Below are positions 25,494-43,555 of a stretch of DNA of 64,000 nucleotides, piece by piece (the first letter of the stretch is position 1; the number at the start of each line of letters is the position of its first letter). The stretch is from a virus: IMG/VR virus record IMGVR_UViG_3300036766_001793, positions 64,001 through 128,000 of that record, one strand, 5' to 3'. The position numbers were made by a program, and so were the translations under genes. The notes beneath the pieces were generated by a model. The model searched no databases. It was given only the letters and a program-made list of their open reading frames with translations, and had not been told where the DNA came from.

Positions 25494-25685
25494 CTACCTC
25501 CCGGCCGGGTGGTACGCGTCCACCAGGGCCATGATCTCGTCGACGAGGGAGTCGGCCTTCCGGAGCGCCGACAGGTCGGGCCCGCCGCGGCCGTCGGTCG
25601 GGACCATGCCGGACACGCGGTCCTCTACCTCGGCCCTGAGCTGCGCCCTGGACATGGCGCGCGCCTGGTCGTAGATGCTCCGCAT
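25494..25685 (-). CDS. Hypothetical protein (MRSIYDQ...)
   Basis: ATG overlaps the protease TGA. Confidence 0.5.
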   Translation of the reverse strand: MRSIYDQARAMSRAQLRAEVEDRVSGMVPTDGRGGPDLSALRKADSLVDEIMALVDAYHPAGR

Positions 25686-31111: not shown

Positions 31112-31186
31112 TGGCTCCGCCCGAGGGCATCGAACCCCCGCCATCCTGGTCCAACGCCAGGCGTGCTACCACTACACCAGGGCGGA
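31112..31186 (-). tRNA. tRNA-Gln(UUG), G33
   Basis: Cloverleaf, loop CG-UUG-GA, CCA end. Confidence 0.75.
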
Positions 31187-31189
31187 GTC

Positions 31190-31263
31190 TGGCTCCATCG
31201 GATGGACTCGCACCACCGTGACATGTTTCAGAGACATGCATCCTACTGCTAGATGACGATGGA
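31190..31263 (-). tRNA. tRNA-Gln(CUG)
   Basis: Loop CU-CUG-AA, T-loop UGCGAG, CCA. Confidence 0.85.
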
Positions 31264-31272
31264 ATGCCTGGG

Positions 31273-31701
31273 TCAGTCCCACATGGACGGGAGGGCGACC
31301 GCGAGCTCCACCAGGCACCACGCCGCGAAGCGCGCGCCGTAGAACTCCTCCTCGTCCTTCTCCGGGTCGGCCTGGGCCACTTTGTAGGCGACGATCCTGT
31401 CGTAGATCCCCTGGAGGCCCGGCACCTCGCCGTGGTAGGCGGCGAACGACTCGTCGTGCTTGCAGGCCCAGACGTAACCGCCGACGAACTGCTCGAGGAG
31501 GGAGAGGACCGTGCCCTCTGTGTCCCAGTAGTGGGGCACGTCCACGTGGATAGCCCTGAACGGGTTGTCCAGGTCGTGGGTCATGTGCCCACTGAGCTTC
31601 CGCTGGACTGCGTCGTGGACGCTTGCGAACCTGTCCTCGAAGGAGGACTTGCCCTGCGGGAGGGCGGACTGGTCTTTCTTCTTCTTCAGCTTGAGATCCA
31701 T
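31273..31701 (-). CDS. Hypothetical protein
   Basis: Leaderless TACACT; phage codon usage. Confidence 0.6.
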   Translation of the reverse strand: MDLKLKKKKDQSALPQGKSSFEDRFASVHDAVQRKLSGHMTHDLDNPFRAIHVDVPHYWDTEGTVLSLLEQFVGGYVWACKHDESFAAYHGEVPGLQGIYDRIVAYKVAQADPEKDEEEFYGARFAAWCLVELAVALPSMWD

Positions 31702-31714
31702 GCCATGAGTGTAC

Positions 31715-31790
31715 TGGAGCCGCCTGCGGGGATCGAACCCGCCCCTCGCGGTCGGAGGCCGCGCGTACTAGACCATTATACTGAGGCGAC
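31715..31790 (-). tRNA. tRNA-Gly(UCC), C33
   Basis: Loop CC-UCC-GA, U73, CCA. Confidence 0.8.
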
Positions 31791-31923
31791 TGGCCACTAC
31801 GGGAGCAGCACCCACTCCAGGACAACGTGCCCGCAGGCGCAGGTGCAGACGCGGATCATGTCGTCGAGCAGCGGCCCTATTGAGTAGGAATGCGAGTGGG
31901 CCATCTTGCCCTCCTTCCTGTCT

Positions 31924-31999
31924 TGGAGCGCCAGGCGGGTCTCGAACCCGCGACCTCCTGCTTGGGAAGCAGGCACACTGCCAACTGTGCTACTGGCGC
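31924..31999 (-). tRNA. tRNA-Gly(CCC)
   Basis: Loop UU-CCC-AA, CCA. Confidence 0.9.
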
Positions 32000-32000
32000 G

Positions 32001-32074
32001 TGGGGCCGGCGGGGGGACTCGAACCCTCGCTTGCTCTTTACGGGAGAGCCGTCCTGCCTCTGGACTACGCCGGC
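32001..32074 (-). tRNA. tRNA-Thr(CGU), C33
   Basis: Loop CC-CGU-AA, CCA. Confidence 0.8.
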
Positions 32075-32146
32075 ACGCTTAAACTGAGACGTCTGGGCTC
32101 CGTCCGCCTTCGGTGGACTGATCAATCTTACATCTAGTGTATTTCT

Positions 32147-32220
32147 TGGAGCTGACTACGGGACTCGAACCCATGTTAGCATCTTACCAAGATGCCGTCC
32201 TGCCTCTAGACGAAGCCAGC
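32147..32220 (-). tRNA. tRNA-Thr(GGU)
   Basis: Loop UU-GGU-AA, CCA. Confidence 0.9.
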
Positions 32221-32221
32221 C

Positions 32222-32297
32222 TGGGGCCCTCGGCAGGGCTCGAACCTGCAGTGTCCCGCTTACAGGGCGGGCGCCGTGCCAGTTGGGCTACGAGGGC
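32222..32297 (-). tRNA. tRNA-Thr(UGU), C33
   Basis: Loop CC-UGU-AA, CCA. Confidence 0.8.
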
Positions 32298-32324
32298 GAT
32301 GGCGGGGGCGGCTGCCGAGCAGTC

Positions 32325-32855
32325 CTAGCGCCCCAGGGCTCGCATGGCGGCCCCCAGGACCCGTATCTGCTTCACGCAGTCGTCCTGCGCTACGTGGTCA
32401 GTCAGGCCAGCGCCGGCAGTCCTGTACGCGTCGCGGACGACCCCCTCCGGCACGAGCGAGAAGAGGGTCCTGAGGTCCCTGACCCCGCGGCGGCCCCAGG
32501 CCGGGGCGAGCCCGGCCTCGGCGAAACGCCTCGAAAGCATCACGGCGTCGTAGGTCGCGTGGCTCCACATGGCGGCGCACCCACTCCCGCGGTAGTACGC
32601 GTTGGCGAGGAGGAGGCCCTCCCTGAGCGGCACCCGGCCCTCGGCGCGGAACACCCCCGCGACCGCCTCAGGCGACTGCCGCAGCCACCAGAGCACGGTC
32701 TCGGTCGACGGCAGCCCACTGCACGTGAGCGGGTCGATGTCGATAGTGGCGCCCTGGAGCGGGAGGAAGTCGGCCGTGTCGAAGGCCACCATGCCCACCT
32801 GGACGAGCAGGTCATCCCCCAGGGCCTCGATGTCCACCATGCACTCTATCGCCAT
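32325..32855 (-). CDS. DEDDh 3'-5' exo(ribo)nuclease (Rv2179c/RNase T-like), paralog of 61802..62443
   Basis: MVDIEALG...WSHATYD...RDLRT...HVAQDDC. Confidence 0.75.
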   Translation of the reverse strand: MAIECMVDIEALGDDLLVQVGMVAFDTADFLPLQGATIDIDPLTCSGLPSTETVLWWLRQSPEAVAGVFRAEGRVPLREGLLLANAYYRGSGCAAMWSHATYDAVMLSRRFAEAGLAPAWGRRGVRDLRTLFSLVPEGVVRDAYRTAGAGLTDHVAQDDCVKQIRVLGAAMRALGR

Positions 32856-32868
32856 GGGCCTCTCCTTC

Positions 32869-32942
32869 TGGTAGGGCCGGGCGGAGTCGAACCGCCGTTT
32901 GGTGTTTATGAGTCACCCGCACTGCCGCTGTGCTACGGCCCC
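32869..32942 (-). tRNA. tRNA(CAU), Ile2 or elongator Met
   Basis: Loop CU-CAU-AA, CCA. Confidence 0.8.
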
Positions 32943-33167
32943 GCAGACCACAGGCCGGATCCGGCCAGCCGCTCCTTCCAGAACCTCATGGACGGGGGAG
33001 GCCTTCCTCGGGTCGTACTCGCTCGCGTGGCCGGCCTCATGGATGAACTGGCTCTCCACGACGTAGGCTGTCCCCCTGCCGCGCCCTCCTCACCATCCAG
33101 TGGGGAACGCCGCACGAGCACTCGTTCACCTCGGCGTCTGGGCCGTAGGCCACGGCACCAGCATACC

Positions 33168-33241
33168 TGGTCGGCCGGCCGAGAATTGAACTCGGATCAA
33201 GGGTTTATAAGACCCCCGTTCTTCCATTGAACTACCGGCCA
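33168..33241 (-). tRNA. tRNA-Ile(UAU)
   Basis: Loop CU-UAU-AA, CCA. Confidence 0.85.
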
Positions 33242-33246
33242 GTTCC

Positions 33247-33321
33247 TGGTCCCCCCGGAGTGAGTCGAACACTCGTTGCCGGTATATCAGACCGGCGCCC
33301 TGGCCGTTGGACGACGGGGGG
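33247..33321 (-). tRNA. tRNA-Ile(GAU)
   Basis: Loop CU-GAU-AU, CCA. Confidence 0.85.
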
Positions 33322-33323
33322 AC

Positions 33324-33394
33324 GGGTGCCGCCCGGCGGGCCCGAACCGCCTCGCCCTCGCGGGCTTCGTCCATGGGTGCGCTTCCCCGGCGGC
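33324..33394 (-). ncRNA. tRNA-like RNA without a recognisable anticodon arm
   Basis: GCCGCC.../GGCGGC acceptor-like stem, GGCGG-UUCGGGC-CCGCC T arm, GCCC-GCGA-GGGC arm, ends ACCC. Confidence 0.4.
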
Positions 33395-33399
33395 GCCTG

Positions 33400-33487
33400 T
33401 GGCGGAGGGCGGGCGACTCGAACGCCAGCGGCTCGCGCCGCCCGTCGGTTTAGCAGACCGCGCCAGGTCCACCCTGGTTCACCCTCC
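33400..33487 (-). tRNA. tRNA-Ser(GCU)
   Basis: Loop CU-GCU-AA, long variable arm, CCA. Confidence 0.85.
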
Positions 33488-33856
33488 GCGCGGCGGGAGC
33501 CCGTGCCCCTTCCTTATCTCTTCTATCGTCTTTCTGGCGACGCCGGAAAGTTCCGCTTCCTTGAGAGCCCCGAGGGCCTCCCTGATGAAGTGGCCCTGCT
33601 CCGAGGTCCCATCGAGAATGGCCCTAGCCTCCTCCATCGGCGTCCACTCCGGCTCAGGCCTGTGGGCCGGCTGGCCGCTCCCCGTCCTGCCGCTCGCCAC
33701 GATCTGGCTGGCCGACCCGGCCATGAACACCGCCTCGTCGCGGGTGTCCCCGTAAGTCACGATGGAGAACTCCCTGTCCCAGGCTACCCAGTGAGTCCCG
33801 CCGCCATTCTGGTGGCCCGGCGGGTTGGGCCTCTCAACCACGCAGAGTCTGTCCAT
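33479..33856 (-). CDS. Hypothetical protein (HicB-N-like TYGDTRDEA motif)
   Basis: GGAGG RBS; its stop lies inside tRNA-Ser. Confidence 0.5.
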   Translation of the reverse strand: MDRLCVVERPNPPGHQNGGGTHWVAWDREFSIVTYGDTRDEAVFMAGSASQIVASGRTGSGQPAHRPEPEWTPMEEARAILDGTSEQGHFIREALGALKEAELSGVARKTIEEIRKGHGLPPRGG

Positions 33857-33875
33857 CCTGGGCCTCCCTTTCTTT

Positions 33876-33951
33876 TGGTGCGCCGGGCGGGACTCGAACC
33901 CGCGGTCACCTGCATGTCGAGCAGGGGCCCTGGCCGCTGGGCGACCGGCGC
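33876..33951 (-). tRNA. tRNA-Val(GAC), C33
   Basis: Loop UC-GAC-AU, CCA. Confidence 0.8.
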
Positions 33952-33954
33952 GTC

Positions 33955-34029
33955 TGGTGCCGCCCGCCGGAGTCGAACCGGCGCACCCTGGGCTTCAACC
34001 AGGAGCTCTTCCAACTGAGCTAGGGCGGC
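33955..34029 (-). tRNA. tRNA-Phe(GAA)
   Basis: Loop UU-GAA-GC, CCA. Confidence 0.9.
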
Positions 34030-34032
34030 GTT

Positions 34033-34109
34033 TGGTAGCGTGGGGGAGGAATCGAACCTCCCGACCTCCGGGTTATGAGCCCGGTGAGCTGCCACTGCTC
34101 CACCTCGCG
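34033..34109 (-). tRNA. Initiator tRNA-fMet(CAU)
   Basis: C1 unpaired, GGG/CCC anticodon stem, CCA. Confidence 0.85.
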
Positions 34110-34151
34110 TGACTGAGTGCGCCGGGTCCGGCGCCAGGCAGGAAGCGTCTT

Positions 34152-34227
34152 TGGTGCCCCCGGAGGGAGTCGAGCCCTCAACCTGCGGTTTAAGAGACCG
34201 CTGCTCTGCCAGTTGAGCTACGGAAGC
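34152..34227 (-). tRNA. tRNA-Lys(CUU)
   Basis: Loop CU-CUU-AA, CCA. Confidence 0.9.
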
Positions 34228-34236
34228 ACATTGGGA

Positions 34237-34563
34237 TCATGCCTCTTGAGGACCCGCGCCTCTTGGGGCCCAGCCCTCCGGCGAATCCCCGTAGGGGTGT
34301 CTCCACAGCCGCGGCGCCGCCCACCCCAGGTAGTCCCGCAGTCGCTCAACGTCGTCCCTGCCTAGGTTCACCTCGGCCTGGTGCACCTGCCGCCCGCGGA
34401 GCGCGCCCCACGCCAGCCTCGCCCGCGCCAGCGGTCCGCCCGCCTGGAAGTAGCCGCCGATCTCGAGGAAGGCGATGTCCTCCTTGTCGTGGTCCTCCGG
34501 CCACGTCGTCACGGAGACGAAGTGGTTGCCGTGGCAGTCGCACCTCAGGATGATCTCTTGCAT
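34237..34563 (-). CDS. Hypothetical protein (MQEIILRCDC...)
   Basis: Fills the inter-tRNA gap, phage codon usage. Confidence 0.55.
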   Translation of the reverse strand: MQEIILRCDCHGNHFVSVTTWPEDHDKEDIAFLEIGGYFQAGGPLARARLAWGALRGRQVHQAEVNLGRDDVERLRDYLGWAAPRLWRHPYGDSPEGWAPRGAGPQEA

Positions 34564-34580
34564 GCCCCACCCGCCTTCTC

Positions 34581-34655
34581 TGGAGTCCCCTGCCGGAGTC
34601 GAACCGGCCCCTGGGAGGTTGCAGCTCCCCGTCTTCGCCACTCGACCAAGGGGAC
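34581..34655 (-). tRNA. tRNA-Cys(GCA)
   Basis: Loop CU-GCA-AC, U73, CCA. Confidence 0.9.
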
Positions 34656-34660
34656 GCGTT

Positions 34661-34736
34661 TGGTGCCCGCGGGGGGATTCGAGCCCCCACGCACCCCGTC
34701 TTAAGCGGGGCGGCTTTTCCGTTTGCCTACGCGGGC
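34661..34736 (-). tRNA. tRNA-Leu(UAA), short variable arm
   Basis: Loop CU-UAA-GA, CCA. Confidence 0.85.
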
Positions 34737-34743
34737 CTGGTCG

Positions 34744-34929
34744 CTAGGCCTCCTCTTTCCACGCCTTCTCGCAGCGGTAGCACATCGGCGCCTCCCTGAG
34801 GCGGGCGTCCTCCCGCCTGCCGCGGTCGATGAGGAAGTTGCAGAAGGTCAGGCCGTTGCGTGCCGACCCCTCCCGGTGGGCCGCCCTGCCCCTGTGGGTG
34901 AACACGCGCCAAGGCGCCTCGTTGGACAT
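34744..34929 (-). CDS. Small Cys-rich hypothetical protein
   Basis: GGAGG RBS; H...C...CYRC. Confidence 0.5.
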   Translation of the reverse strand: MSNEAPWRVFTHRGRAAHREGSARNGLTFCNFLIDRGRREDARLREAPMCYRCEKAWKEEA

Positions 34930-34954
34930 GCTGGGCCCTCCTACAGGCATTGTG

Positions 34955-35031
34955 TGGTCCGGCCGGCGGGAGTCGAACCCGCACCCACCGGGGCTTGAAC
35001 CCGGCGGCTTTGCCAATTTGCCTACGGCCGG
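34955..35031 (-). tRNA. tRNA-Leu(CAA), short variable arm
   Basis: Loop UU-CAA-GC, CCA. Confidence 0.85.
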
Positions 35032-35207
35032 GGCTGGCAGCATTCCTCGGCGAGGCCCCGATTGAACCAGATCTTCACGCACTCCTGGCACTGCCAGAGG
35101 CATAGATAGAGCTGGGGCGGGCAGCATATCTGAGCCTCCCGCTGGTCGGCGTGCCACTTCCCGCATCCGTGGCACTCCCACGCCCTCGGGACCTCTTCTG
35201 CGTTCAT
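35022..35207 (-). CDS. Small double zinc-finger-like protein
   Basis: WECHGCG...CC...WQCQEC...CC; its stop is tRNA positions 8-10. Confidence 0.5.
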   Translation of the reverse strand: MNAEEVPRAWECHGCGKWHADQREAQICCPPQLYLCLWQCQECVKIWFNRGLAEECCQPRP

Positions 35208-35234
35208 GCCCAGATCCTACCGGGAGCGTTCCGT

Positions 35235-35310
35235 TGGTGCCGACGGAGGGATTCGAACCCCCAACACTTGCGGTCTGAACGCAAGGCCTCTGCCGTTGGG
35301 CTACGCCAGC
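35235..35310 (-). tRNA. tRNA-Leu(CAG), short variable arm
   Basis: Loop UU-CAG-AC, CCA. Confidence 0.85.
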
Positions 35311-35792
35311 ACTTCTGCTCTCTTCCGATTCCCGAAGGTCTCGGTCTGAGAGTGGCAGTTTGGACACAGGAACCTGAGATTGCTCACGCGATCATCGTGC
35401 CTGTTGCCGTCCACATGATCTATCTGAAGGGTGAGTGGAACCCCTCTCCATTCGCCTGAGTTCCCGCATCCCTCACATTCCCACCGCCTCCCCAGCTCGA
35501 ATAGTGCTCTCCTTAGGAGGGCGGTCTGCTCGTATCGGCCGCCCTTTGGTTTCAGAGTCAAGATAAGCTCGGGGGTTTTCCTCTCCGGCCCTCCGCTGTG
35601 TTTAGCCCCACGTCCGCTGCCAGCCGACCCGGTGAAGTGGGAAGTATCAATCCCGAACTTACTGAGCAGCTTCTTGATGTGTGAGTGTTGACCACCACTC
35701 GGTGCCATCCCCATGGCCCTCAGGACACCGGAGACGGACTCATTCCCCTTGGTAGCCAATTCCAGTTCATCCCTGGAGTACGAATATCTCAT
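35301..35792 (-). CDS. HNH endonuclease
   Basis: CEGCG...LQIDHVDGNRHDDRVSNLRFLCPNCHSQT. Confidence 0.9.
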   Translation of the reverse strand: MRYSYSRDELELATKGNESVSGVLRAMGMAPSGGQHSHIKKLLSKFGIDTSHFTGSAGSGRGAKHSGGPERKTPELILTLKPKGGRYEQTALLRRALFELGRRWECEGCGNSGEWRGVPLTLQIDHVDGNRHDDRVSNLRFLCPNCHSQTETFGNRKRAEVLA

Positions 35793-36016
35793 GACTTGAT
35801 GATCTGATTACCGGAACAGCTCGAGGCGCTCCGACCGAATATCATCCTGAAGCAGCCGCAGCATACATAGGGGGTCAGGTTATGCCTGCGCCTCCGCGGG
35901 TCGTCCCAGGCGATCTCCTCGCCGATCTTATGAACCGCCGGGTCGCAGCAGATCCTGCATGCCTCCCCGGCGACGGACCCAGAGATGAAGTGCAGCACGG
36001 CCACCCCCAGACGCAT
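35789..36016 (-). CDS. Small Cys-rich hypothetical protein
   Basis: CRICC...HKIGEE...HNLTPYVCCGCF. Confidence 0.5.
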   Translation of the reverse strand: MRLGVAVLHFISGSVAGEACRICCDPAVHKIGEEIAWDDPRRRRHNLTPYVCCGCFRMIFGRSASSCSGNQIIKS

Positions 36017-36020
36017 TCTA

Positions 36021-36095
36021 TGGCACCCTCGGCAGGAGTCGAACCCGCAACTCGACGTTCGAAGCGTCGCGTCCTGTCCGTTGGACTACGAGGGC
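36021..36095 (-). tRNA. tRNA-Arg(UCG)
   Basis: Loop CU-UCG-AA, CCA. Confidence 0.9.
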
Positions 36096-36223
36096 ATTTT
36101 CCTGGTGCAGGCCGGATCGTCCGACCGTCCGGGCCTGTGTTTCCCGGCGGTGGAGCGTCCCGTAGGGTGCCTCAGTCGCCAGCGCACGTCCCGCATGGCG
36201 CGCCACCCCGCCACATCCTGTCC

Positions 36224-36298
36224 TGGGGCCCCCGGCGGGAGTCGAACCCGCATTCTCGATTTAGAGGACCGGCGCCCTATCCATTGGACGACGGGGGC
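36224..36298 (-). tRNA. tRNA-Arg(UCU), C33
   Basis: Loop CC-UCU-AA, A20, CCA. Confidence 0.75.
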
Positions 36299-36303
36299 GC
36301 GAA

Positions 36304-36380
36304 TGGTAGGCCGGACGGGACTCGAACCCGTAAATCTCCTCCTTCGCAGGGAGGCGCCCTATCCGTTGGGCCACCGGCCT
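36304..36380 (-). tRNA. tRNA-Arg(GCG)
   Basis: Loop CU-GCG-AA, CCA. Confidence 0.85.
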
Positions 36381-37251
36381 ATGCCCTGTACCTGTTCTTC
36401 CCGGTCCCGCCCTCGTGGGCGATCCGGTGGTACTTCATGTACTCGCACGTCCAGTGCTCCACGGCGGAGAGGCCGAGCCTGCCTCGGCCCTCTGCCGCGA
36501 CCGACGCGAAGTCAAGCCCGAGCCCGCCGAGCGTCTCGTCCTGGAGGTCCCTGAGCTGGGCCATGCACGTCACGGCCTCCCCCGGGGTGACCCGCCTGCC
36601 GAACAGCACCCCAAGCCCGCCGAGCGCGCCTGGCCCCGCCAGGGCCCACTCGTCCACGGAGGCCTGGGTCGCCGGCCTGGGGCCGTACGTCAGGTCCTGC
36701 GCCATCTGGTACCCGAGGAAGTTCCCGACGCCCGGGAGGCACCTCATGTGCTCGAAGACGTCCTGGAGGTCGGTCATCCTCTCCAGCCTCTTGGCCAGCG
36801 GGCCGGCGACCGACACCACGACCGGGAGCGCCTCCACCACAGTCTTGAGCGAGGGGGTCATGTGCGCGCCGGTGAACAGAGGCCTCCCGCTCTGCCGGCG
36901 GGCGTCCATCCTCCCGGCGAGCCACCCCTGGTCGAGGGCCTCGAGCCTGAGGAACCTGCCGCCGGTGACCTCCTCCCAGGAGTCCCGGTTGTTGAGCTCG
37001 CGGTAGAGCCACACGTTGAACACCGTGTCCGGCGCCTCGGCCCCGTCCTCCGCCGCGTCGGCCATCGCCCTCACTAGCCTGACCGTGCCGGCGTCCAGCT
37101 CCCGGAAGACGTTGGTGAACCGCCACTCCAGGAAGACCGGGTCCTCGGTCCACGGCGCCGGGAGGCCGTCCGCCCGGCGGCGCCAGATCGCCTGGCGCTC
37201 GTGGGCCAGGCGGTAGAACTCGTCGAGCTTCTCCTGGACCGGCGGCTGCAT
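36379..37251 (-). CDS. 5-hmdU DNA kinase helical-domain family (aGPT-Pplase2-like)
   Basis: ERQAIW.RR..G.P.PWTEDPV...RFTNVFRELD...G.G.FLGYQ...D...GPGA..G...EHWTCEYMKY. Confidence 0.8.
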   Translation of the reverse strand: MQPPVQEKLDEFYRLAHERQAIWRRRADGLPAPWTEDPVFLEWRFTNVFRELDAGTVRLVRAMADAAEDGAEAPDTVFNVWLYRELNNRDSWEEVTGGRFLRLEALDQGWLAGRMDARRQSGRPLFTGAHMTPSLKTVVEALPVVVSVAGPLAKRLERMTDLQDVFEHMRCLPGVGNFLGYQMAQDLTYGPRPATQASVDEWALAGPGALGGLGVLFGRRVTPGEAVTCMAQLRDLQDETLGGLGLDFASVAAEGRGRLGLSAVEHWTCEYMKYHRIAHEGGTGKNRYRA

Positions 37252-37260
37252 GCCGCTAGC

Positions 37261-37377
37261 CTACCGGCACCGGTCGCACAGGGCCACGAAGCTCGTGGCG
37301 TAGTAGTCCGCGTGCTTGACCTCGAGGGTGTCGTCGTCGTGTCGCCCCAGAATGAGGCAAAGGATCAGTTTCTTCAT
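37261..37377 (-). CDS. Very small hypothetical protein (MKKLILCLILGRH...CDRC)
   Basis: Leaderless TATGCT. Confidence 0.4.
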   Translation of the reverse strand: MKKLILCLILGRHDDDTLEVKHADYYATSFVALCDRCR

Positions 37378-37460
37378 GCTAGCCAGCATACCGCGCCCTC
37401 GCCCCGTTCCCGCTAGGGAGGTCCGCACGATTTGCCTATGCCACCTATCGTTCCCGTCTA

Positions 37461-37550
37461 TGGAGGAAGGCGCGGGACTCGAACCCGCACGCCGGCTCGC
37501 CGCCGGCCTCACCGCTTTCGAGGCGGCGTACCACTCCCTTGGGGCCTTCC
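37461..37550 (-). tRNA. tRNA-Ser(CGA)
   Basis: Loop CU-CGA-AA, long variable arm, atypical D arm, CCA. Confidence 0.75.
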
Positions 37551-37716
37551 GTTACTCCGCCCTGAACTCCCTGAGGTCCGCCTGCCTCAAGACCCGGCGA
37601 CCGCTCCTGCGCGCCAGCTTCTTGTCCGCCCTGCTGTTTTCGAAGCACTTCCAAAAGATGCACCCGGCGTGCTTCGCGGAGACCTTCTTGTAGACGTCCT
37701 GCACGCGCCCATCCTA

Positions 37717-37806
37717 TGGAGGAAGGGAGGGGAGTCGAACCCCCACGCCCCTCTCGGGGCAACCCGCTCTCAAGGCGGGCGCCGCCACCGTTCGGCTGGC
37801 CCTTCC
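37717..37806 (-). tRNA. tRNA-Ser(UGA)
   Basis: Loop CU-UGA-GA, long variable arm, CCA. Confidence 0.85.
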
Positions 37807-37807
37807 G

Positions 37808-38206
37808 CTAGCCCCAGATGCTGGTGCGCCTCGGCATGTGCGGGCGTCCCGCCAGCTTCGTCCGGTCGAAGACGGGGAACACGAGCAACGGGCGCTCCGA
37901 CTGTGCCATCCCGTCCAGGAAGTACGCCTTCCAGATGTCGCCGCCGTCCTCGCCCAACCCGGTGAGTGTGATGAGCACCCCGGGGAGCTTGGCGGAGGCG
38001 GCGATCATGTCCTCCTCCCACTGGTACCACTTCAACTCGCTGGACGACCACCCGTCCCGGTCGAAGATCTCCTCCCCGAGGGCGGCGTGCAGTGCCTCAA
38101 TGTAGTCGGCCCTCGGCGCCTGCAACGGGAGGAGCGACGTGTGCCCGTCGAGCTCTTGGTCCGTGAGCGGCCTCAGCTCCACCCTGAACTGCGTGTGATA
38201 GCCCAT
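37808..38206 (-). CDS. Hypothetical phage protein (MGYHTQF...KWY.WEEDM...G.GE...DIWK)
   Basis: AAGGAG RBS. Confidence 0.65.
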   Translation of the reverse strand: MGYHTQFRVELRPLTDQELDGHTSLLPLQAPRADYIEALHAALGEEIFDRDGWSSSELKWYQWEEDMIAASAKLPGVLITLTGLGEDGGDIWKAYFLDGMAQSERPLLVFPVFDRTKLAGRPHMPRRTSIWG

Positions 38207-38220
38207 AGCTCGTCTCCTTG

Positions 38221-38313
38221 TGGAGGAAGGTAAGGGGTTCGAACCCTTGGGCCGCGCAAACCGCGACCACGCGCTTTCCAAGCGCGCCCGATAATCCCCT
38301 CCGGCAACCTTCC
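38221..38313 (-). tRNA. tRNA-Ser(GGA)
   Basis: Loop UU-GGA-AA, long variable arm, CCA. Confidence 0.85.
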
Positions 38314-38314
38314 A

Positions 38315-38533
38315 TCAGCGGCGGATCACGTGCCCGAAGTGCCAGTACCCGCACCCGTGCAGGTAGGCGGCCATCCCCGGGTTCTCGAAGACGGCCATGG
38401 CCGCCTCAGCGTCCTCTCGGACGTAGTAGCACCTCTTGTTGGCCTGGTCGCAGAGTATCCGACCGCCCTTGGCCACGTAGGCCTTGGGCTCGTCGTTGAT
38501 CCTACCGGGCCTGAGGTAGAACTCGATAGACAT
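38315..38533 (-). CDS. Small hypothetical protein (K.CY...A...Y...CG.WH)
   Basis: Leaderless TACCAT. Confidence 0.55.
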   Translation of the reverse strand: MSIEFYLRPGRINDEPKAYVAKGGRILCDQANKRCYYVREDAEAAMAVFENPGMAAYLHGCGYWHFGHVIRR

Positions 38534-38554
38534 GCGGACATGGTACCGAGATGC

Positions 38555-38629
38555 TGGTGGATCTGGCGAGAGTCGAACTCGCATTCCCTCGTTGCGACGG
38601 AGGTGTTCTCCCATTGCCACTACAGACCC
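38555..38629 (-). tRNA. tRNA-Ala(CGC)
   Basis: G3:U70, loop GU-CGC-AA, CCA. Confidence 0.8.
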
Positions 38630-38880
38630 AACTTGGAGGCTCTCCACTTCCTCATGGAGAGTTTGTGGCACTCGCGGCACTTGCGCTTCTCCACCCGACC
38701 ATCAGCTGGACTGGCCTGCGTCTGGCGGTGCGCTCCGCGTGTAAGGCGGCCGCCTTCGCATTCCCCCAAACTCGAGAACCAGGTCGCAGTGATCAATCCG
38801 CGCCTGGTTGCTTCTGCGAGCGGTTTTGTGCCCTGGCAACGCCCCGAGGGACGTTTGGCCATGCAGTTTCCACCGTTCTC
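38620..38880 (-). pseudogene. Probable degenerate HNH-endonuclease remnant
   Basis: ENGGNCMAKR and C-terminal RKCRECHKLSMRKWR resemble HNH C-terminal segments; no intact HNH core. Confidence 0.3.
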
Positions 38881-38883
38881 CTA

Positions 38884-38959
38884 TGGTCCCTCGTACCGGA
38901 GTCGAACCGGTCGTCTCCTACTCGACAGGCAGGCATGTTGGCCGATACACCAACGAGGG
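38884..38959 (-). tRNA. tRNA-Asp(GUC)
   Basis: Loop CU-GUC-GA, CCA. Confidence 0.85.
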
Positions 38960-39088
38960 GTGTCCCGACGCCCTGCGGGGGCTTCCCCGCACTCCCCGGC
39001 CCGGCGGCCATCCCTTCGCGGGGGCGTTGCGATGCGCCGCTGGCTCGGCTAAGTCCCGGGCTGCGCCCTGGTATCCGGCGGCGGCCCC

Positions 39089-39919
39089 TTAGTCCGGGGC
39101 GTCGGTGCTGTGGTGCCGGCAGAGGGATTCGAACCCCCAATGCGCGGACGCGCCTGCTCTACAGGCAGGTGCCCTTCCTACTGGGCGTCGCCGGCGTGCT
39201 GCCCCACGATGGGGTTGCCCTGGCGGAACTCCGAGAAGGACCTGGCCCTCCCGTCGCCCCCTGGCCCCGAAGAGCTCGAGCGGCGCGAGGCCGGCGGCCG
39301 GCCTCGATGCGGCGCTGAGCCTCTGGTCCACCACCTGGCGTCCCCTGAGGTTGCTGTAGCTGGTCAGCAGGATCTCGCCCCCGGCGACGTGGGCCCTCTT
39401 GTTGCTCCTGGCCTCGCCCCGCCACTGGGAGGCCGCCCTGGCGTCCCTCGGGTCGAGGAACAGGGTCGCGTCGCTCCACGGGCCGCCGTCCCTGGAGGAC
39501 CGGCCGTCCTTGAAGGAGTACGACCCGCCCATCTTGGTCCTGAAGCCTGTCTCGCCACGCTGCAGGCGGCCAGGCTCCTGCGTCGCGCTTGGCCCGCCGC
39601 TGGGCGGCCCAGGGCTCCTGTGGGCGGCGGCCGAGCCACTGGGCAGCTGGTCGGGCCGGGCCGCCTCCGGTTTCGGCCGCCCCTGGCCGAACCGCTCACC
39701 GCGTTCCCCGTACCGTTTCGCCCACTCCTGCCTGGCCCGCTCGCCTATCGCCCTGCCTGGGTGGCCCCCTGCCGGGGCCTCGTAGTACCGCCCGCCCCTC
39801 GGGCCGACCTTGACGTCGGCGCCTGCCGGGGCTCTGCCCCTCCTGCCGAGGTGCACGCGGTTGACCTCGCCGGAGAGCGCGATGACTGAGTCCAGGGTGG
39901 AGGCGAGGTCCATCCGCAT
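39089..39919 (-). CDS. GPRGG-motif protein; possible frameshift near the 3' end
   Basis: RVHLGRRGRAPAGADVKVGPRGGRYYE; the annotated frame runs through tRNA-Tyr. Confidence 0.55.
   Translation of the reverse strand: MRMDLASTLDSVIALSGEVNRVHLGRRGRAPAGADVKVGPRGGRYYEAPAGGHPGRAIGERARQEWAKRYGERGERFGQGRPKPEAARPDQLPSGSAAAHRSPGPPSGGPSATQEPGRLQRGETGFRTKMGGSYSFKDGRSSRDGGPWSDATLFLDPRDARAASQWRGEARSNKRAHVAGGEILLTSYSNLRGRQVVDQRLSAASRPAAGLAPLELFGARGRREGQVLLGVPPGQPHRGAARRRRPVGRAPACRAGASAHWGFESLCRHHSTDAPD
39111..39195 (-). tRNA. tRNA-Tyr(GUA)
   Basis: Loop CU-GUA-GA, long variable arm, CCA. Confidence 0.85.
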
Positions 39920-39960
39920 ACCATACCGCCGGCACCAACGGAATGGTACCCTTGTGCTGC

Positions 39961-40034
39961 TGGCTCCGGCGCAGGGAGTCGAACCCCGATGAACAGGTTA
40001 ACAGCCTGTCGTCTTACCCTTGGACGACGCCGGA
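39961..40034 (-). tRNA. tRNA-Asn(GUU)
   Basis: Loop CU-GUU-AA, CCA. Confidence 0.9.
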
Positions 40035-40054
40035 ATGCATAGCTGACGCTGCTT

Positions 40055-40122
40055 TGACGCGGGCCGTCCGTCTCGAGCGGACGCCTCCCCGAGGGGGTGT
40101 GCTGTCTTTACACCAGGCCTGC
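40055..40122 (-). ncRNA. tRNA-like RNA with collapsed anticodon loop
   Basis: GCAGGCC/GGCCCGC acceptor, GUGU-AAAGACA-GCAC D arm, CCCC-CUC-GGGG arm, GUCCG-CUCGAGA-CGGAC T arm, ends GUCA. Confidence 0.55.
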
Positions 40123-40125
40123 GCT

Positions 40126-40198
40126 TGGAACCCGCCGGCCGAGTCCAACGGCCACCTCCGGCCCCGCGGCCGGTGCGCTGACGCTACGCCAGACGGGT
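40126..40198 (-). ncRNA. tRNA-like RNA with 6-nt anticodon loop
   Basis: ACCCGUC/GGCGGGU-U-CCA, CCGGC-CGCGGG-GCCGG, T loop UUGGACU. Confidence 0.6.
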
Positions 40199-40203
40199 TG
40201 CTT

Positions 40204-40289
40204 TGGTCGAAGAGGAGGGGGTCGAACCCTCACGCCCTTCCGGGCACAGGCCTCTCATGCCTGCGCGTATGCCGTTTCGCCACTCTCCG
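40204..40289 (-). tRNA. tRNA-Leu(GAG)
   Basis: Loop AU-GAG-AG, long variable arm, CCA. Confidence 0.85.
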
Positions 40290-40499
40290 GTTCTTGTGGG
40301 GGCGCGCTGAGCTCCAGTTGCTTTACGCCAGCGGCCCTGTGGGGCCTGTACCTCCCCCTGCTTGGCTATGCCCGGGAGCCGTCCTCCGACCCGGTGGTCG
40401 CCGGGCGCGGCGGGCCCTTGGGCCCAGACGGCCCCTGCGGGGACGCCTGGGTCTGCGGCTCCGGGGCCTTCGGTCTCTCGAGCACCTGCGTCTGGGCCG

Positions 40500-40757
40500 T
40501 CATGCGGTCGCCGGCTTGGGCACGTTTCCGTACCAGCGCTCTATGACCTCCAGCGGGCGCCAGGCCTCTGCCGGGCACTCGGAGAACCCTTCCTGGGCCC
40601 GCCCGGTGAAGTTCACCCTCCGCTCGAGGCGGGCCGCCTGGAGCTCGGGGTACCTGTCGCAGTATTCGCAGGCCGCCGGCGCGTGGAGGACCTGCGCGTC
40701 GCAGTGCGGGAACGGCGCGTCGGAGTCGAACCCGTCGCGCTCCCTGGTGAATCTCAT
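40500..40757 (-). CDS. Hypothetical phage protein (FPHCD..VLHAP..CEYCD..P.LQ..R...VNFTG)
   Basis: AGGAG RBS. Confidence 0.6.
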   Translation of the reverse strand: MRFTRERDGFDSDAPFPHCDAQVLHAPAACEYCDRYPELQAARLERRVNFTGRAQEGFSECPAEAWRPLEVIERWYGNVPKPATA

Positions 40758-40778
40758 CTCGTGTTCTCCTACTCTTCT

Positions 40779-40853
40779 TGGTACCTCCGGCGGGATTCGA
40801 ACCTGCACTTCCTGGATTAAAAGTCCAGTACGCTGCCATTACGTCACAGAGGC
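40779..40853 (-). tRNA. tRNA-Lys(UUU)
   Basis: Loop CU-UUU-AA, CCA. Confidence 0.9.
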
Positions 40854-40866
40854 ACCTTACACATTC

Positions 40867-40942
40867 TGGAGCGGCCGGCGGGGCTCGAACCCGCGGTCTC
40901 CGCCTTGGCGAGGCGGCGCGCTGCCAGCTGCGCCACGGCCGC
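40867..40942 (-). tRNA. tRNA-Gly(GCC), C33
   Basis: Loop UC-GCC-AA, CCA. Confidence 0.85.
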
Positions 40943-41082
40943 GAAGGGGGGGCGCATTGCGCCCCCGGTGGAATCCTACTCCGGGGACTGGCCCCGTTTC
41001 AGATTCGCTATTGCGGGGGACCGCCTGCCCCTTCCCCACGCACTCCGGCCCCCTCACCTGCGGGGCCGGCCCCGGACTTCCT

Positions 41083-41159
41083 TGGTCAGTGAGGAGGGAG
41101 TCGAACCCACGGCCTCTTCGTCCCGAACGAAGCGCTCTGCCAGACTGAGCTACACACTG
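41083..41159 (-). tRNA. tRNA-Pro(CGG)
   Basis: Loop UU-CGG-GA, CCA. Confidence 0.9.
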
Positions 41160-41171
41160 ACATTCTAGGCC

Positions 41172-41330
41172 GCCACGCGGCTGGTCACCAATTTTGGTTC
41201 GGCCCTCGCCAGGCCCAGCGGCGGTCAAGCCTCTGGCTCTCCCCGGGTCGGGCCTCCCCTCAACGACTGTCGACCGTCCGACCCGGCCCGGTGACTAGCC
41301 GACACCTGGTCCTGACAGCCTCACGTAGCC
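41172..41330 (-). ncRNA. Candidate structured ncRNA, copy A (GGCYAGUCACCG family)
   Basis: Closing stem GCUACGUGAGGCUGUCA/UGACCAGCCGCGUGGC; CGGC-UA-GUCA/UGAC-C-GCCG; no credible ORF. Confidence 0.45.
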
Positions 41331-41430
41331 TAATCGGCAACGCCCGCTTCCCGCGCGCCGGTATGCCCTCTCGCTGGCCTCCGCCTGGCTGAGGCGCGCG
41401 ATCGGTCTTGGGAGGGGGCCGACCGCGCCG

Positions 41431-41486
41431 CGGCGGTCAACCCGCGAGGGCCGGCCCCCTCCCTCGGGGGCGGTGACTGGCCGCCG
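41431..41486 (-). ncRNA. Candidate structured ncRNA, copy B
   Basis: GCGGC-CA-GUCACCG...GUUGAC-C-GCCGC. Confidence 0.35.
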
Positions 41487-41518
41487 TCCTCTCATCAGTC
41501 CGATCCTAATACAACCTT

Positions 41519-41592
41519 TGGTCAGGGAGGAGGGGGACGATCCCTCTCCACGCGGTCCCAAACCGCGAATGCAGCCCCTACACCACTCCCTG
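41519..41592 (-). tRNA. tRNA-Pro(UGG)
   Basis: Loop UU-UGG-GA, atypical T loop AUCGUCC, CCA. Confidence 0.8.
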
Positions 41593-41645
41593 GTTAGCGT
41601 CGCCCAGTCCTACTCCGATATGGCCATCTCTCAAAGAGTACCGAG

Positions 41646-41750
41646 CTCTCGGTTGGGCCGCCCGCCAGCATCTCCCGGGGGGCGGTCGTCCCTCAGCGCC
41701 TTTCGCCCTCTCCCCGGCGTCGGTGACTGGCCGACACAGGTTACCGAGAG
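41646..41750 (-). ncRNA. Candidate structured ncRNA, copy C
   Basis: CUCUCGGU/ACCGAGAG closing stem; GUGUCGGCCAGUCACCG...CCGGG...CGAAAG.CGCUGAGGG...CCCGGGAGA, colinear with copy A. Confidence 0.45.
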
Positions 41751-41761
41751 ATCATCGCAAT

Positions 41762-41838
41762 TGGTCAAGCTGGCGGGGATCGAACCCACGGCCTCGTGAC
41801 CCCCAGTCACGCGCGCTGCCAAACTGCGCCACAGCCTG
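41762..41838 (-). tRNA. tRNA-Pro(GGG)
   Basis: Loop CU-GGG-GG, CCA. Confidence 0.9.
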
Positions 41839-42013
41839 ATGGCCCCGCGGCGCCAGGTTCGCCCCTGCAATCCCCCTCTTCGGGGGCCGGGGCCCTCCGG
41901 CCCTCGGGGCCGGCCTGGCGTGAAGGGAGTTACCGCCCGGCGGGGGGAGCTTGCCTTGCCACCCGCCGGGGGCCCGAGGTGGTCAGCGGACGGCAAGCCG
42001 CCCGCGGGGTTTC

Positions 42014-42087
42014 TGGGGTGCAGGACGGGATTCGAACCCGTATCAGCTGGGTCACAGCCGGCCGTTCTGCCCTTGAACTACCCGCAC
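42014..42087 (-). tRNA. tRNA-His(GUG), no encoded G-1
   Basis: Loop CU-GUG-AC, C73, U at position -1. Confidence 0.85.
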
Positions 42088-42188
42088 ATGGGGCCCCGTT
42101 GACTGCGGGCCCATTCCGCGACCGGCACGGAGCTCACACCGGCAGCTTGGCCTGGCCCTCGCGGACGCGTAGGAGGCTCTAAGGTGGA

Positions 42189-42262
42189 TGGTGGCCTCGA
42201 GGGGACTCGAACCCCTTCCTCGTCCTTGAGAGGGACGTGTCCTGCCGTTAGACCACGAGGCC
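42189..42262 (-). tRNA. tRNA-Glu(CUC)
   Basis: Loop CU-CUC-AA, CCA. Confidence 0.9.
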
Positions 42263-42299
42263 GCGGCCTGAGGCCGCGCTCTCGGCCTGGCTGGGTGGG

Positions 42300-42374
42300 T
42301 GGTGGTCCCGGCGGGGGTCGAACCCGCCCCTGGCGCTTGAAAGGCGCCCGTCCTGACCGCTAGACCACGGGACC
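42300..42374 (-). tRNA. tRNA-Glu(UUC)
   Basis: Loop CU-UUC-AA, CCA. Confidence 0.9.
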
Positions 42375-42537
42375 GTGGCTGCTTGCCCCCGGGTGAGCCA
42401 GTTCTTCGCTGGCGGCCGAGTCGGTACCGGTTTTCCCCGGGCGCAGTGGCCCGCCACTATTCGCGGCGCGGCGACTGGCGGCTCGTTCGGCCCTCCGACC
42501 GGGCCTGGCCGCTACGCTGCGCGCCGCTAGGCGGATG

Positions 42538-42612
42538 TGGTACCCGCGCCGGGAGTCGAACCCGGACCTCAACTTTAGGGGAGTTGCGTCCTATCCATTG
42601 GACCACGTGGGC
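42538..42612 (-). tRNA. tRNA-Arg(CCU), C33
   Basis: CAACU-CC-CCU-AA-AGUUG, CCA. Confidence 0.8.
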
Positions 42613-42632
42613 ATCTGTCTGGCGGCGGGGAT

Positions 42633-42765
42633 GGCGCCCCGCCGCGATCTGAAGGTTCCCGCTGAGACCAGCCCCGCGGGAAGTGACCCCCGGTGACTAC
42701 TAGCCGGCGGACTATACCCCCCTGGGGCCGTCCTGAACCGCGATCGGAGGGCGCCGCGCGCCCGC
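42633..42765 (-). ncRNA. Candidate structured ncRNA, copy D (rod-like)
   Basis: GGCGCC/GGCGCC and CGCGGUU/GAUCGCG closing stems; GGCUAGUAGUCACCG; UUCCCGC/GCGGGAA hairpin. Confidence 0.35.
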
Positions 42766-42771
42766 CTTCTC

Positions 42772-42846
42772 TGGTGCCCCAGGACGGAATCGAACCGCCT
42801 GCTCCCTCCGTGTAGAGGAGGAGCTCTTCCGGTGAGCTACTGGGGC
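42772..42846 (-). tRNA. tRNA-Val(UAC), C33
   Basis: Loop UC-UAC-AC, CCA. Confidence 0.8.
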
Positions 42847-42982
42847 GAGTCATCCCCCAGATAGTACCGGGGGCGGATTAGGTATTCGCGGGGCTCTCCG
42901 GCCCCTTGGCGGGCCGCCGGGCGGGGCGTAGCCCCGCCGCTGGCTGGTGTGAATCTGCCATAGCGACCCCTTTCGGCTTGAT

Positions 42983-43057
42983 TGGCAGGAGCGGCGGGAA
43001 TCGAACCCGCATCTTCAGTTTTGGAGACTGGCGCCCTAGCCTTTGGACGACGCACCT
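42983..43057 (-). tRNA. tRNA-Trp(CCA)
   Basis: Loop CU-CCA-AA, CCA. Confidence 0.9.
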
Positions 43058-43117
43058 ACTGCCTGAATGACAGGATACCGCGCCGGCCGCGGCTTGTACA
43101 CCCCGCCCGGGCGCTTT

Positions 43118-43555
43118 TCAGTGTTTCCCCAGCCGCTCGAGGAATGAGATGAAGCGCCCGTTGGTCAGGGCCCCGGGCCTCCTGGACCTCATGTACCTGA
43201 TGAGCTCCGGCCCGGATCTGCCCGTCAGCTTGTGGACGGCCATCGCGTTGACGAGGGAGGACCTGTTCAGGCCGGCCGCGCAGTGGACCAGCACGCGCCC
43301 GCCGGACGACACGGCGGAGCACACCCTGGAGACCACCTCGTCGAGGTCCTCGCGGTCCGGGAGTGGCCCGTCCTCTATCTGCCACCTGAGCTCTGTGAAC
43401 GGCCCGCGGCCGCCGCCGCCGGAGAACGGTGGGTCCCCGTTGAGGTTCACCACGTAGTCTATGCCGAGGTCGAGGACCTCGCCCTCGCCCTCCCGGCCCT
43501 GGACAGACCCGGACTGCCAGAGCCTGCCGGGGATGATCTCATAGAGCTCGGTCAT
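43118..43555 (-). CDS. Dual-specificity (PTP-fold) phosphatase
   Basis: VLVHCAAGLNRS (HCx5R) and IEDGPLP. Confidence 0.9.
   Translation of the reverse strand: MTELYEIIPGRLWQSGSVQGREGEGEVLDLGIDYVVNLNGDPPFSGGGGRGPFTELRWQIEDGPLPDREDLDEVVSRVCSAVSSGGRVLVHCAAGLNRSSLVNAMAVHKLTGRSGPELIRYMRSRRPGALTNGRFISFLERLGKH

Follow-up and report, generated by a model that had tools for sequence, protein, structure and literature searches.

Are the spacers of a phage tRNA operon only gaps between tRNA genes, or do some of them encode RNAs of their own? The question is raised by a stretch of 64,000 nucleotides from an uncultured phage (the window; bases 64001-128000 of the 165,484-base IMG/VR virus contig IMGVR_UViG_3300036766_001793). 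An initial annotation of this DNA had proposed a multi-copy non-coding RNA which lies between the tRNA genes and is released by tRNA processing. Our comparative analysis points to one spacer in particular. Element D, located between tRNA-Val(UAC) and tRNA-Arg(CCU), matches no Rfam family and is the strongest candidate for a spacer RNA with a function. Three further elements, A, B and C, are found between the tRNA-Pro genes of the same array and have in common with D a short box, CGGCYAG(UAG)UCACCG. We favor, with a probability of roughly 0.55, a combined reading in which D is a functional structured spacer RNA or a cis module and in which A, B and C are lineage-specific duplicates with its box.

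The contig has a GC content of ~68% and a completeness of 87% (CheckV). ARAGORN detects 41 tRNA genes in the window at 31112-43057, every one on the minus strand. The motif-bearing region forms the first, promoter-proximal third of this operon, from tRNA-Val(UAC) to tRNA-Pro(CGG). Relatives were identified with the phosphatase encoded directly upstream of the first tRNA. In IMG/VR, this query gave a sole syntenic relative, contig L062 (51% identity), with the tRNA order Trp-Val-Arg-Glu-Glu-His-Pro-(Met)-Pro-Pro-Gly-Lys. Closer phosphatase homologues (62-73% identity) came from the protein database and are carried by contigs L181, L183-L187, L188, L193 and L194; L181, with 7.6 kb, is syntenic from the Trp gene through all three Pro genes. 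The same query returned nothing syntenic and nothing closer from JGI metagenomes, and the next gene upstream was of no use as a query.

Element D and its predicted helices are located as follows.

42622-42740, minus strand: element D, between tRNA-Val(UAC) and tRNA-Arg(CCU), conserved in the clade
42735-42740 with 42653-42658, minus strand: helix P1, AGGUUC/GAACCU
42709-42733, minus strand: helix P2, a hairpin with a loop variable in length and sequence
42659-42707, minus strand: helix P3, a long bulged helix with the box CCGGCUAGUAGUCACCGGGGG as its 5′ strand
42691-42705, minus strand: box variant GGCUAGUAGUCACCG with a UAG insertion, in the 5′ strand of P3, nearly invariant in D copies
42622-42645, minus strand: helix P4, a 9-bp GC hairpin which follows a linker

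D is as well conserved as the tRNAs. Among the window, L181, L185 and L187, the D core displays pairwise identities of 86-92%. In the same four genomes, the phosphatase gene reaches 69-80% at the DNA level, the Trp-Val spacer 64-78% and the flanking tRNAs 69-97%. Near-identical copies are also present in L183, L184, L186 and, partially, L194. The box variant listed above had been noted initially at 42691 and is genuine, since it is kept across six related contigs. Its second position is a U in L183, L185 and L187, and L187 has one additional C-to-U change which retains a wobble pair.

RNAalifold, applied to six D sequences, folds them into a three-way junction (P1-P2-P3) plus the 3′ hairpin P4. 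The variable positions of P3 are either unpaired or correspond to swaps between Watson-Crick and wobble pairs (C-G to U-G, G-U to G-C), and P4 contains one compensatory pair, C-G to A-U. An alternative fold, in which the box lies in the loop of a local hairpin, shows three broken cells at that hairpin; in L181 and L185 the junction has the higher stability of the two. With a relaxed ARAGORN threshold only a poor cloverleaf is found in D. A covariance model of the element (R1) scores the complete D copies at 137-153 bits. Beyond the clade, the invariant 18-mer of D gave only 13 chance matches in IMG/VR and 185,579 prokaryote genomes, none of which fits the D model.

A diverged D orthologue is carried by the phage of L062, G001. 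In this orthologue the box is largely lost (GGAGUCGCGGCG). When it is folded alone by minimum free energy (MFE), the same arrangement of P1, P2, P3 and P4 is predicted from different helix sequences, in a comparison made at the level of helices with anchors picked by eye. We consider this predicted fold to be the strongest support for the structure of D.

Downstream of D, an extra conserved module occurs in L181 (6120-6279), L185 (1066-1131) and L187 (1600-1667). It reads GGUGGGUGUGCCGG...CCGGGUAAACAGCG...CGCGGCAGCC and is absent from the window. L181 has a further insertion of ~90 nt.

How is D related to the other carriers of the box? The form GGCYAGTCACCG occurs without mismatch at exactly three places in the window (41289-41300, 41471-41482 and 41721-41732), all on the minus strand and within 450 nt. 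No exact match exists elsewhere in the contig, so that the strand split is 0 forward to 3 reverse, the latter being the sense strand of the tRNAs. The exact repeated box in the spacers is thus as initially described. The spacers, initially described as free of open reading frames (ORFs), lie in the co-oriented tRNA array, and none of their small ORFs matches a Pfam family or resembles a recognisable protein. The variant initially placed at 42470-42480 is noise because, with two mismatches allowed, the 23 matches observed equal the shuffle expectation of 22.75; furthermore, its spacer is only ~42% identical to L181.

42469-42480, minus strand: rejected second variant CGCCAGUCGCCG, outside the box family owing to its chance-level mismatch count

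Three other leads on the motif were rejected. Six of the 17 sense-strand GGCYAGUC sites fall in the array, and the extra sites occur in unrelated contexts. An exact scan of IMG/VR with the 15-mer GTCGGCYAGTCACCG produced 58 single matches, all unrelated and mostly in coding sequence. Lastly, CTTGACC in A and B could be read as part of a sigma-70 promoter; by our own reading of the sequence the −10 element is absent, and no promoter-like site was found at 40700-43300.

The perfect boxes belong to three elements framed by paralogous tRNA-Pro genes (ARAGORN).

41083-41159, minus strand: tRNA-Pro(CGG)
41204-41314, minus strand: copy A, with the box GGCUAGUCACCG at 41289-41300, then the CCGGGUCGG/CCGACCCGG hairpin, then GGCUUGACCGCCGC
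41401-41506, minus strand: copy B, with the box GGCCAGUCACCG at 41471-41482 in the loop of a GGCGG/CCGCC hairpin, followed by a 22-bp hairpin
41519-41592, minus strand: tRNA-Pro(UGG)
41646-41749, minus strand: copy C, with the box GGCCAGUCACCG at 41721-41732 in the loop of a GUCGG/CCGAC hairpin
41762-41838, minus strand: tRNA-Pro(GGG)

A, B and C are paralogues. When all spacers were aligned locally against each other and compared with shuffles, A and C proved to be colinear over ~70-80 nt (z 9.9), as the initial annotation had stated, and the alignment of B with C spans 53 nt (z 9.0). A profile hidden Markov model (HMM) built from the three elements scores A at E 1.5e-22 and recovers no additional copy from either the contig or L062. 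Around each copy a stem of its own can form, and these possible closing stems differ in sequence, again as initially described: CUCUCGGU/ACCGAGAG in C, GAUCGG/CCGAUC in B and CCAGG/CCUGG in A. By our rough estimate, which is not the output of a tool, only the 8-bp stem of C is unlikely to arise by chance.

These features invite a reading in which A, B and C are a functional multi-copy RNA family, freed by tRNA processing and acting via the box, which might for instance bind a single factor of the phage or the host. The 12-nt box is perfect in all three copies despite flanks which are only ~68-72% identical, and each copy retains a closing stem of its own. A local hairpin with a 5-bp stem and a 7-nt loop is predicted to present the box in B and C (probability ~0.9), and one position of its stem shows a U-A / G-C / U-G change. 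MFE z scores of −3.5 for B and −2.0 for C are also in line with such a family. However, the equal stability of B on both strands indicates that its score reflects a DNA palindrome, and the fold of A is not significant (z −0.84), its box pairing far downstream. Three sequences provide no testable covariation, and RNAalifold proposes yet another pairing than either MFE folding or the model of the initial annotation. That model paired the box with UUGAC-C-GCCG. The pairing is possible in A and B and differs from the predicted fold; the proposed partner UUGACCGCC is as invariant as the box itself. Selection on structure, which had been suggested for these copies, is consequently not borne out by the three sequences.

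Orthologous spacers of the relatives also speak against an established family. In L181, neither of the two spacers between the Pro genes (GGG to UGG and UGG to CGG) contains a copy of the box, and their significant similarity to A, B or C is confined to a 17-nt tail (GCGGCCCAACC..). The start of the matching tRNA-Pro spacer in L187 (63 nt) is likewise unrelated. In L062, the tRNA-Pro(UGG) and tRNA-Pro(CGG) genes are 5 nt apart and the three Pro genes are nearly contiguous; between its Pro(GGG) and Pro(UGG) genes, an odd tRNA-Met is called and no copy of the box is present. As far as the few available genomes show, A, B and C thus appear to be specific to the lineage of the window. Since they lie between paralogous tRNA-Pro genes and are missing in relatives, local duplication of a spacer together with tRNA fragments is their simplest origin. 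B provides a possible trace of this event: the 3′ part of its 22-bp hairpin aligns with the region from the anticodon arm to the T arm of tRNA-Pro(UGG) (score 28, z 5.9, the best of 41 tRNAs), as a partly decayed tRNA-Pro might. Evolving duplicates are therefore more likely than an established multi-copy RNA gene family, and the latter appears unlikely to us.

Other origins and identities were considered for the three copies and rejected. The similarity of A and C to the 41 tRNAs is at background level, which leaves no basis for a decayed tRNA in these two cases. A hammerhead reading of CUGAUGAG in B lacks the GAAA partner and an Rfam match. In copies of a miniature inverted-repeat transposable element, common terminal inverted repeats and target-site duplications would be expected; no common ends are seen, and each of the three elements has a closing stem of a different sequence. 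Separately, the tRNA-Pro(UGG) gene at 41519-41592 is itself unusual. ARAGORN calls it, the Rfam tRNA model misses it even at E up to 10, and its T loop reads AUCGUCC in place of UUCGAAU.

Could conservation act on the DNA rather than on an RNA? The box and D would then be sites for DNA-binding proteins or hot spots of recombination or duplication, and A, B and C would be selectively neutral remnants left by tRNA-Pro duplication. The strand symmetry of the B fold, the resemblance of B to a tRNA-Pro fragment and the confinement of the three copies to one lineage would all be accounted for, and GGCYAGUC is a near-palindrome of the GACTAGTC type. Nonetheless, the perfect boxes are all found on the sense strand of the tRNAs. 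Moreover, the changes in P3 of D maintain U-G and G-U wobble pairs, which have a meaning for RNA only, the stems of D are kept where its loop varies in length, and the G001 orthologue preserves the helices and not the sequence. Conservation at the DNA level only seems to us quite improbable.

Several results weigh against the combined reading. The covariation in D is not significant: 97.9% of cells pair, and 76 of 500 shuffles reach the observed score. The MFE of the D core is unremarkable as well (z +0.5 to −0.9), and the helix-level match with G001 depends on the anchors picked by eye. The kinship of D with the other elements is supported neither by the covariance model of D, which does not find A, B or C (its best alignment places the B box region on P3 with 4.4 bits, E 0.31), nor by the HMM of A, B and C, which does not find D, nor by local alignments of D with each of the three, which are not significant. 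The link depends on a box of 15 nt that differs by a 3-nt indel. Finally, the tRNA-Pro spacers are covered only by L181 (in full), L187 (63 nt) and L062, so that the term ‘lineage-specific’ relies on few genomes. Even so, the box is perfectly kept in A, B and C and common to D bar the 3-nt indel, which points either to a recent origin of the copies from D or to selection acting on the box itself.

Do the elements belong to a known RNA family? Rfam searches returned only tRNA-class matches, whether run at the gathering score, over the array with E up to 5 or over 41150-42780 with E up to 10, in agreement with the unnamed status given to the RNA at the outset. At the gathering score, Rfam confirms most of the ARAGORN tRNAs and reports nothing else. 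Searches up to E 10 gave no match in the spacers to Y_RNA, YrlA, GOLLD, ROOL, T-box, 6S or ribozymes, and the spacers of A to D contain no tRNA call by Infernal or by ARAGORN at its normal threshold.

The initial annotation had nevertheless recognised in the box helix a resemblance to the Ro60-binding stem of Y RNAs. According to this idea, A to D are Y RNA-like elements of the YrlA type in which the helix GGCYAGUC / UUGAC-C-GCC binds Ro60/Rsr, supplied by the host or by the missing part of the phage genome. Pairs of Ro60 and Y-like RNAs are documented in phages (PMC4201824, PMC12135203). A and B can form CGGC/GCCG and GUCA/UGAC helices separated by a 2x1 internal loop, which recalls the YrlA consensus stem cggCga...UuGucGccg. 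In addition, G001, which is a distant relative, encodes a 504-aa TROVE/Ro60-like protein inside its tRNA array, between tRNA-Val(GAC) and tRNA-Ile(GAU) (L208 859-2755; G001:C1:40605-43874). Ahead of this ORF lie a YrlA-like RNA, which has both a T and a D arm (28.7 bits, under the gathering score of 69), and three tandem related modules of the form GAGGCGAnnGU..GGGnUACUUC.

YrlA is defined by a bulged terminal stem that bears the box GNCGAAN0-1G near the 5′ end, by a tRNA-like domain with a T arm and a D arm, and by a Ro60 gene encoded on the same strand at a distance of no more than ~4 kb (PMC4201824); in Y-like RNAs the CGAA box has been placed in a bulge (PMC12135203). GGCYAGUCACCG does not fit the CGAA box, and A, B and D have no box of the CGAA type. 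C alone holds a sequence, GGCGAAAG, which fits GNCGAAN0-1G (PMC4201824), but in an internal hairpin loop and not in the terminal stem. The YrlA consensus blocks GGUUCGA and UAGCUCA..GGUAGAGC are missing from A to D, and so are the T and D arms. As for the CGAAAG/YUGAG pair, which the initial annotation had likened to T-loops, a UUCGA-type loop is found in neither A nor C. Neither the Pfam PF05731 HMM nor a search with the TROVE protein of G001 detects a TROVE gene in the 165 kb contig, an absence which is not absolute in a contig 87% complete. At the position of the G001 Ro60 gene, the window has an unrelated 387-nt spacer (33489-33875) with a 125-aa ORF. The YrlA-like RNA of G001 has no homologue in the window genome and is unrelated in sequence to A to D. 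Conversely, G001 contains no exact and no one-mismatch box, and its two-mismatch matches are at chance level. Ro60/Y-like modules therefore exist in this phage group, but A to D are not such RNAs, and we regard a Ro60-binding role of the box helix as very unlikely.

What could the combined reading mean for the life of these spacers? Neither promoter-like nor terminator-like sites were found at 40700-43300 in a consensus scan. By our reading, a promoter-like sequence, GUGUACAAGC..17 nt..UAUCCU, lies upstream of tRNA-Trp (43058-43117, minus strand); it is kept in L062 and L181 and falls below the threshold of the consensus scan. From the absence of internal sites and this upstream sequence, the spacers are most likely co-transcribed with the tRNAs. 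The array may thus be viewed as one long phage tRNA operon whose spacers hold related non-coding modules with a common box. D would be transcribed as part of the precursor and cut from it when RNase P and 3′-end nucleases release the flanking tRNAs. Once freed, it could persist as a stable small RNA; alternatively, it could act in cis as a folding and processing module which binds a protein through its bulged helix. A, B and C would be paralogues which arose by local duplication, with B retaining a piece which resembles tRNA-Pro(UGG). The proposal of a multi-copy RNA released by tRNA processing hence survives in part: a small family of spacer modules, the co-oriented operon and the tRNA-level conservation of D speak for it, and the absence of A, B and C in L181 and L187 speaks against the multi-copy aspect.

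A bolder extension would unite D with A, B and C in a new class of phage tRNA-operon RNA. Its bulged CGGCYAG(UAG)UCACCG helix would dock one factor, and its three-fold amplification between the tRNA-Pro genes would raise the dose of a decoy or scaffold. The docked factor could, for example, be a host RNA-processing protein, a defence protein of the anticodon-nuclease type or a quality-control protein independent of Ro60. We consider this extension doubtful.

Further spacers of the array deserve mention. A module at 36096-36223 (minus strand) matches L062 11808-11944 with 76% identity over 96 nt, including a near-uninterrupted identical block of ~46 nt which contains ACGCUCCACCGCCGGGAAACACAGGCCCGGACGGUCG. 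It is flanked by Arg-Arg genes here and by Pro-Met genes in L062, has no Rfam match and represents a second candidate conserved spacer RNA; a 22-mer from this spacer recovers only the L062 contig. The spacer from His to Pro(GGG) (41839-42013, minus strand) is strongly conserved in L181 (z 16) and present in L187. It is closed by a perfect 7-bp stem ending in GCCA, and over its last 72 nt (41840-41911) ARAGORN calls a fair cloverleaf, though only at a relaxed threshold. In the Glu(CUC)-to-His spacer (42088-42188, minus strand), the long block GCUCCGUGCCGGU..CGCGGAAUGGGCC.GCAGUCAACGG.GCCCCA is common to L187; in L181 the two tRNAs are just 5 nt apart. A tRNA-Sec model match at 33403-33488 (minus strand) reaches 50.6 bits against a gathering score of 47 at a place where ARAGORN calls nothing, and L208 691-760 shows a weak counterpart at the syntenic place. 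Closure of spacers by an acceptor stem plus CCA is not enriched, with 19 candidates versus 12.7 ± 4.1 in shuffles.

Candidate RNA-end-modifying enzymes bracket the operon. At its head, directly upstream of the first tRNA, lies the dual-specificity phosphatase gene (43118-43555, minus strand). At its tail, directly downstream of the last tRNA, a 1620-aa ORF (25685-30547, minus strand) combines intein/Hint, NUDIX and 2′,5′-RNA-ligase-type (2H phosphoesterase) domains; genes for a ribonucleotide reductase and an exonuclease follow beyond it.

Annotations of large phage tRNA arrays usually list the tRNAs and treat the rest as ‘spacers’. In this case, one spacer is as constant as the tRNAs across an uncultured high-GC clade, is predicted to retain its helices in a diverged relative and has no counterpart among RNA families. 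Non-tRNA RNAs in phage tRNA operons are already known, Y-like RNAs among them (PMC4201824), and D is a new, clade-restricted one without a database family; it adds to the evidence that tRNA operons deliver other small RNAs. The locus also illustrates that an exact repeat within one genome (A, B and C) is weaker evidence for function than a less exact copy which is conserved across genomes (D). If the box is a protein-binding site, the 15-nt bulged helix offers a handle on function.

Among known systems, YrlA (RF02553; PMC4201824) and Yrl1/Yrl2 of phiLo (PMC12135203) are likewise small structured RNAs; some are located within phage tRNA clusters or close to them, and their terminal helix contains an internal loop. 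In contrast, YrlA and Y RNAs (RF02553, RF00019) come with a Ro60 gene, a CGAA box in the terminal stem and T and D arms, none of which was found for A to D. GOLLD and ROOL are also phage non-coding RNAs, often beside tRNA genes, but they are ornate RNAs of 500-800 nt (PMC12286853), whereas the modules described here have only 100-130 nt and no Rfam match.

tRNA pseudogenes and fragments in phage arrays offer another comparison. The alignment of the long B hairpin with the adjacent tRNA-Pro(UGG) and the position of the elements between paralogous tRNA-Pro genes recall this category; none of the 41 tRNAs is significantly similar to A, C or D, and the box has no tRNA counterpart.

A further parallel is provided by phage T4. 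Its tRNA gene cluster encodes the stable RNAs ‘species 1 and 2’ (rnaC and rnaD), which we take to be unrelated in sequence to A to D. These small non-tRNA RNAs lie between tRNA genes, are co-transcribed with them and are released by tRNA-processing nucleases. The T4 RNAs are two single genes, whereas the present operon contains one clade-conserved module and three lineage-specific box paralogues. The likeness between the two systems is one of position: in both, the elements are embedded between co-oriented tRNA genes without a promoter-like or terminator-like site of their own.

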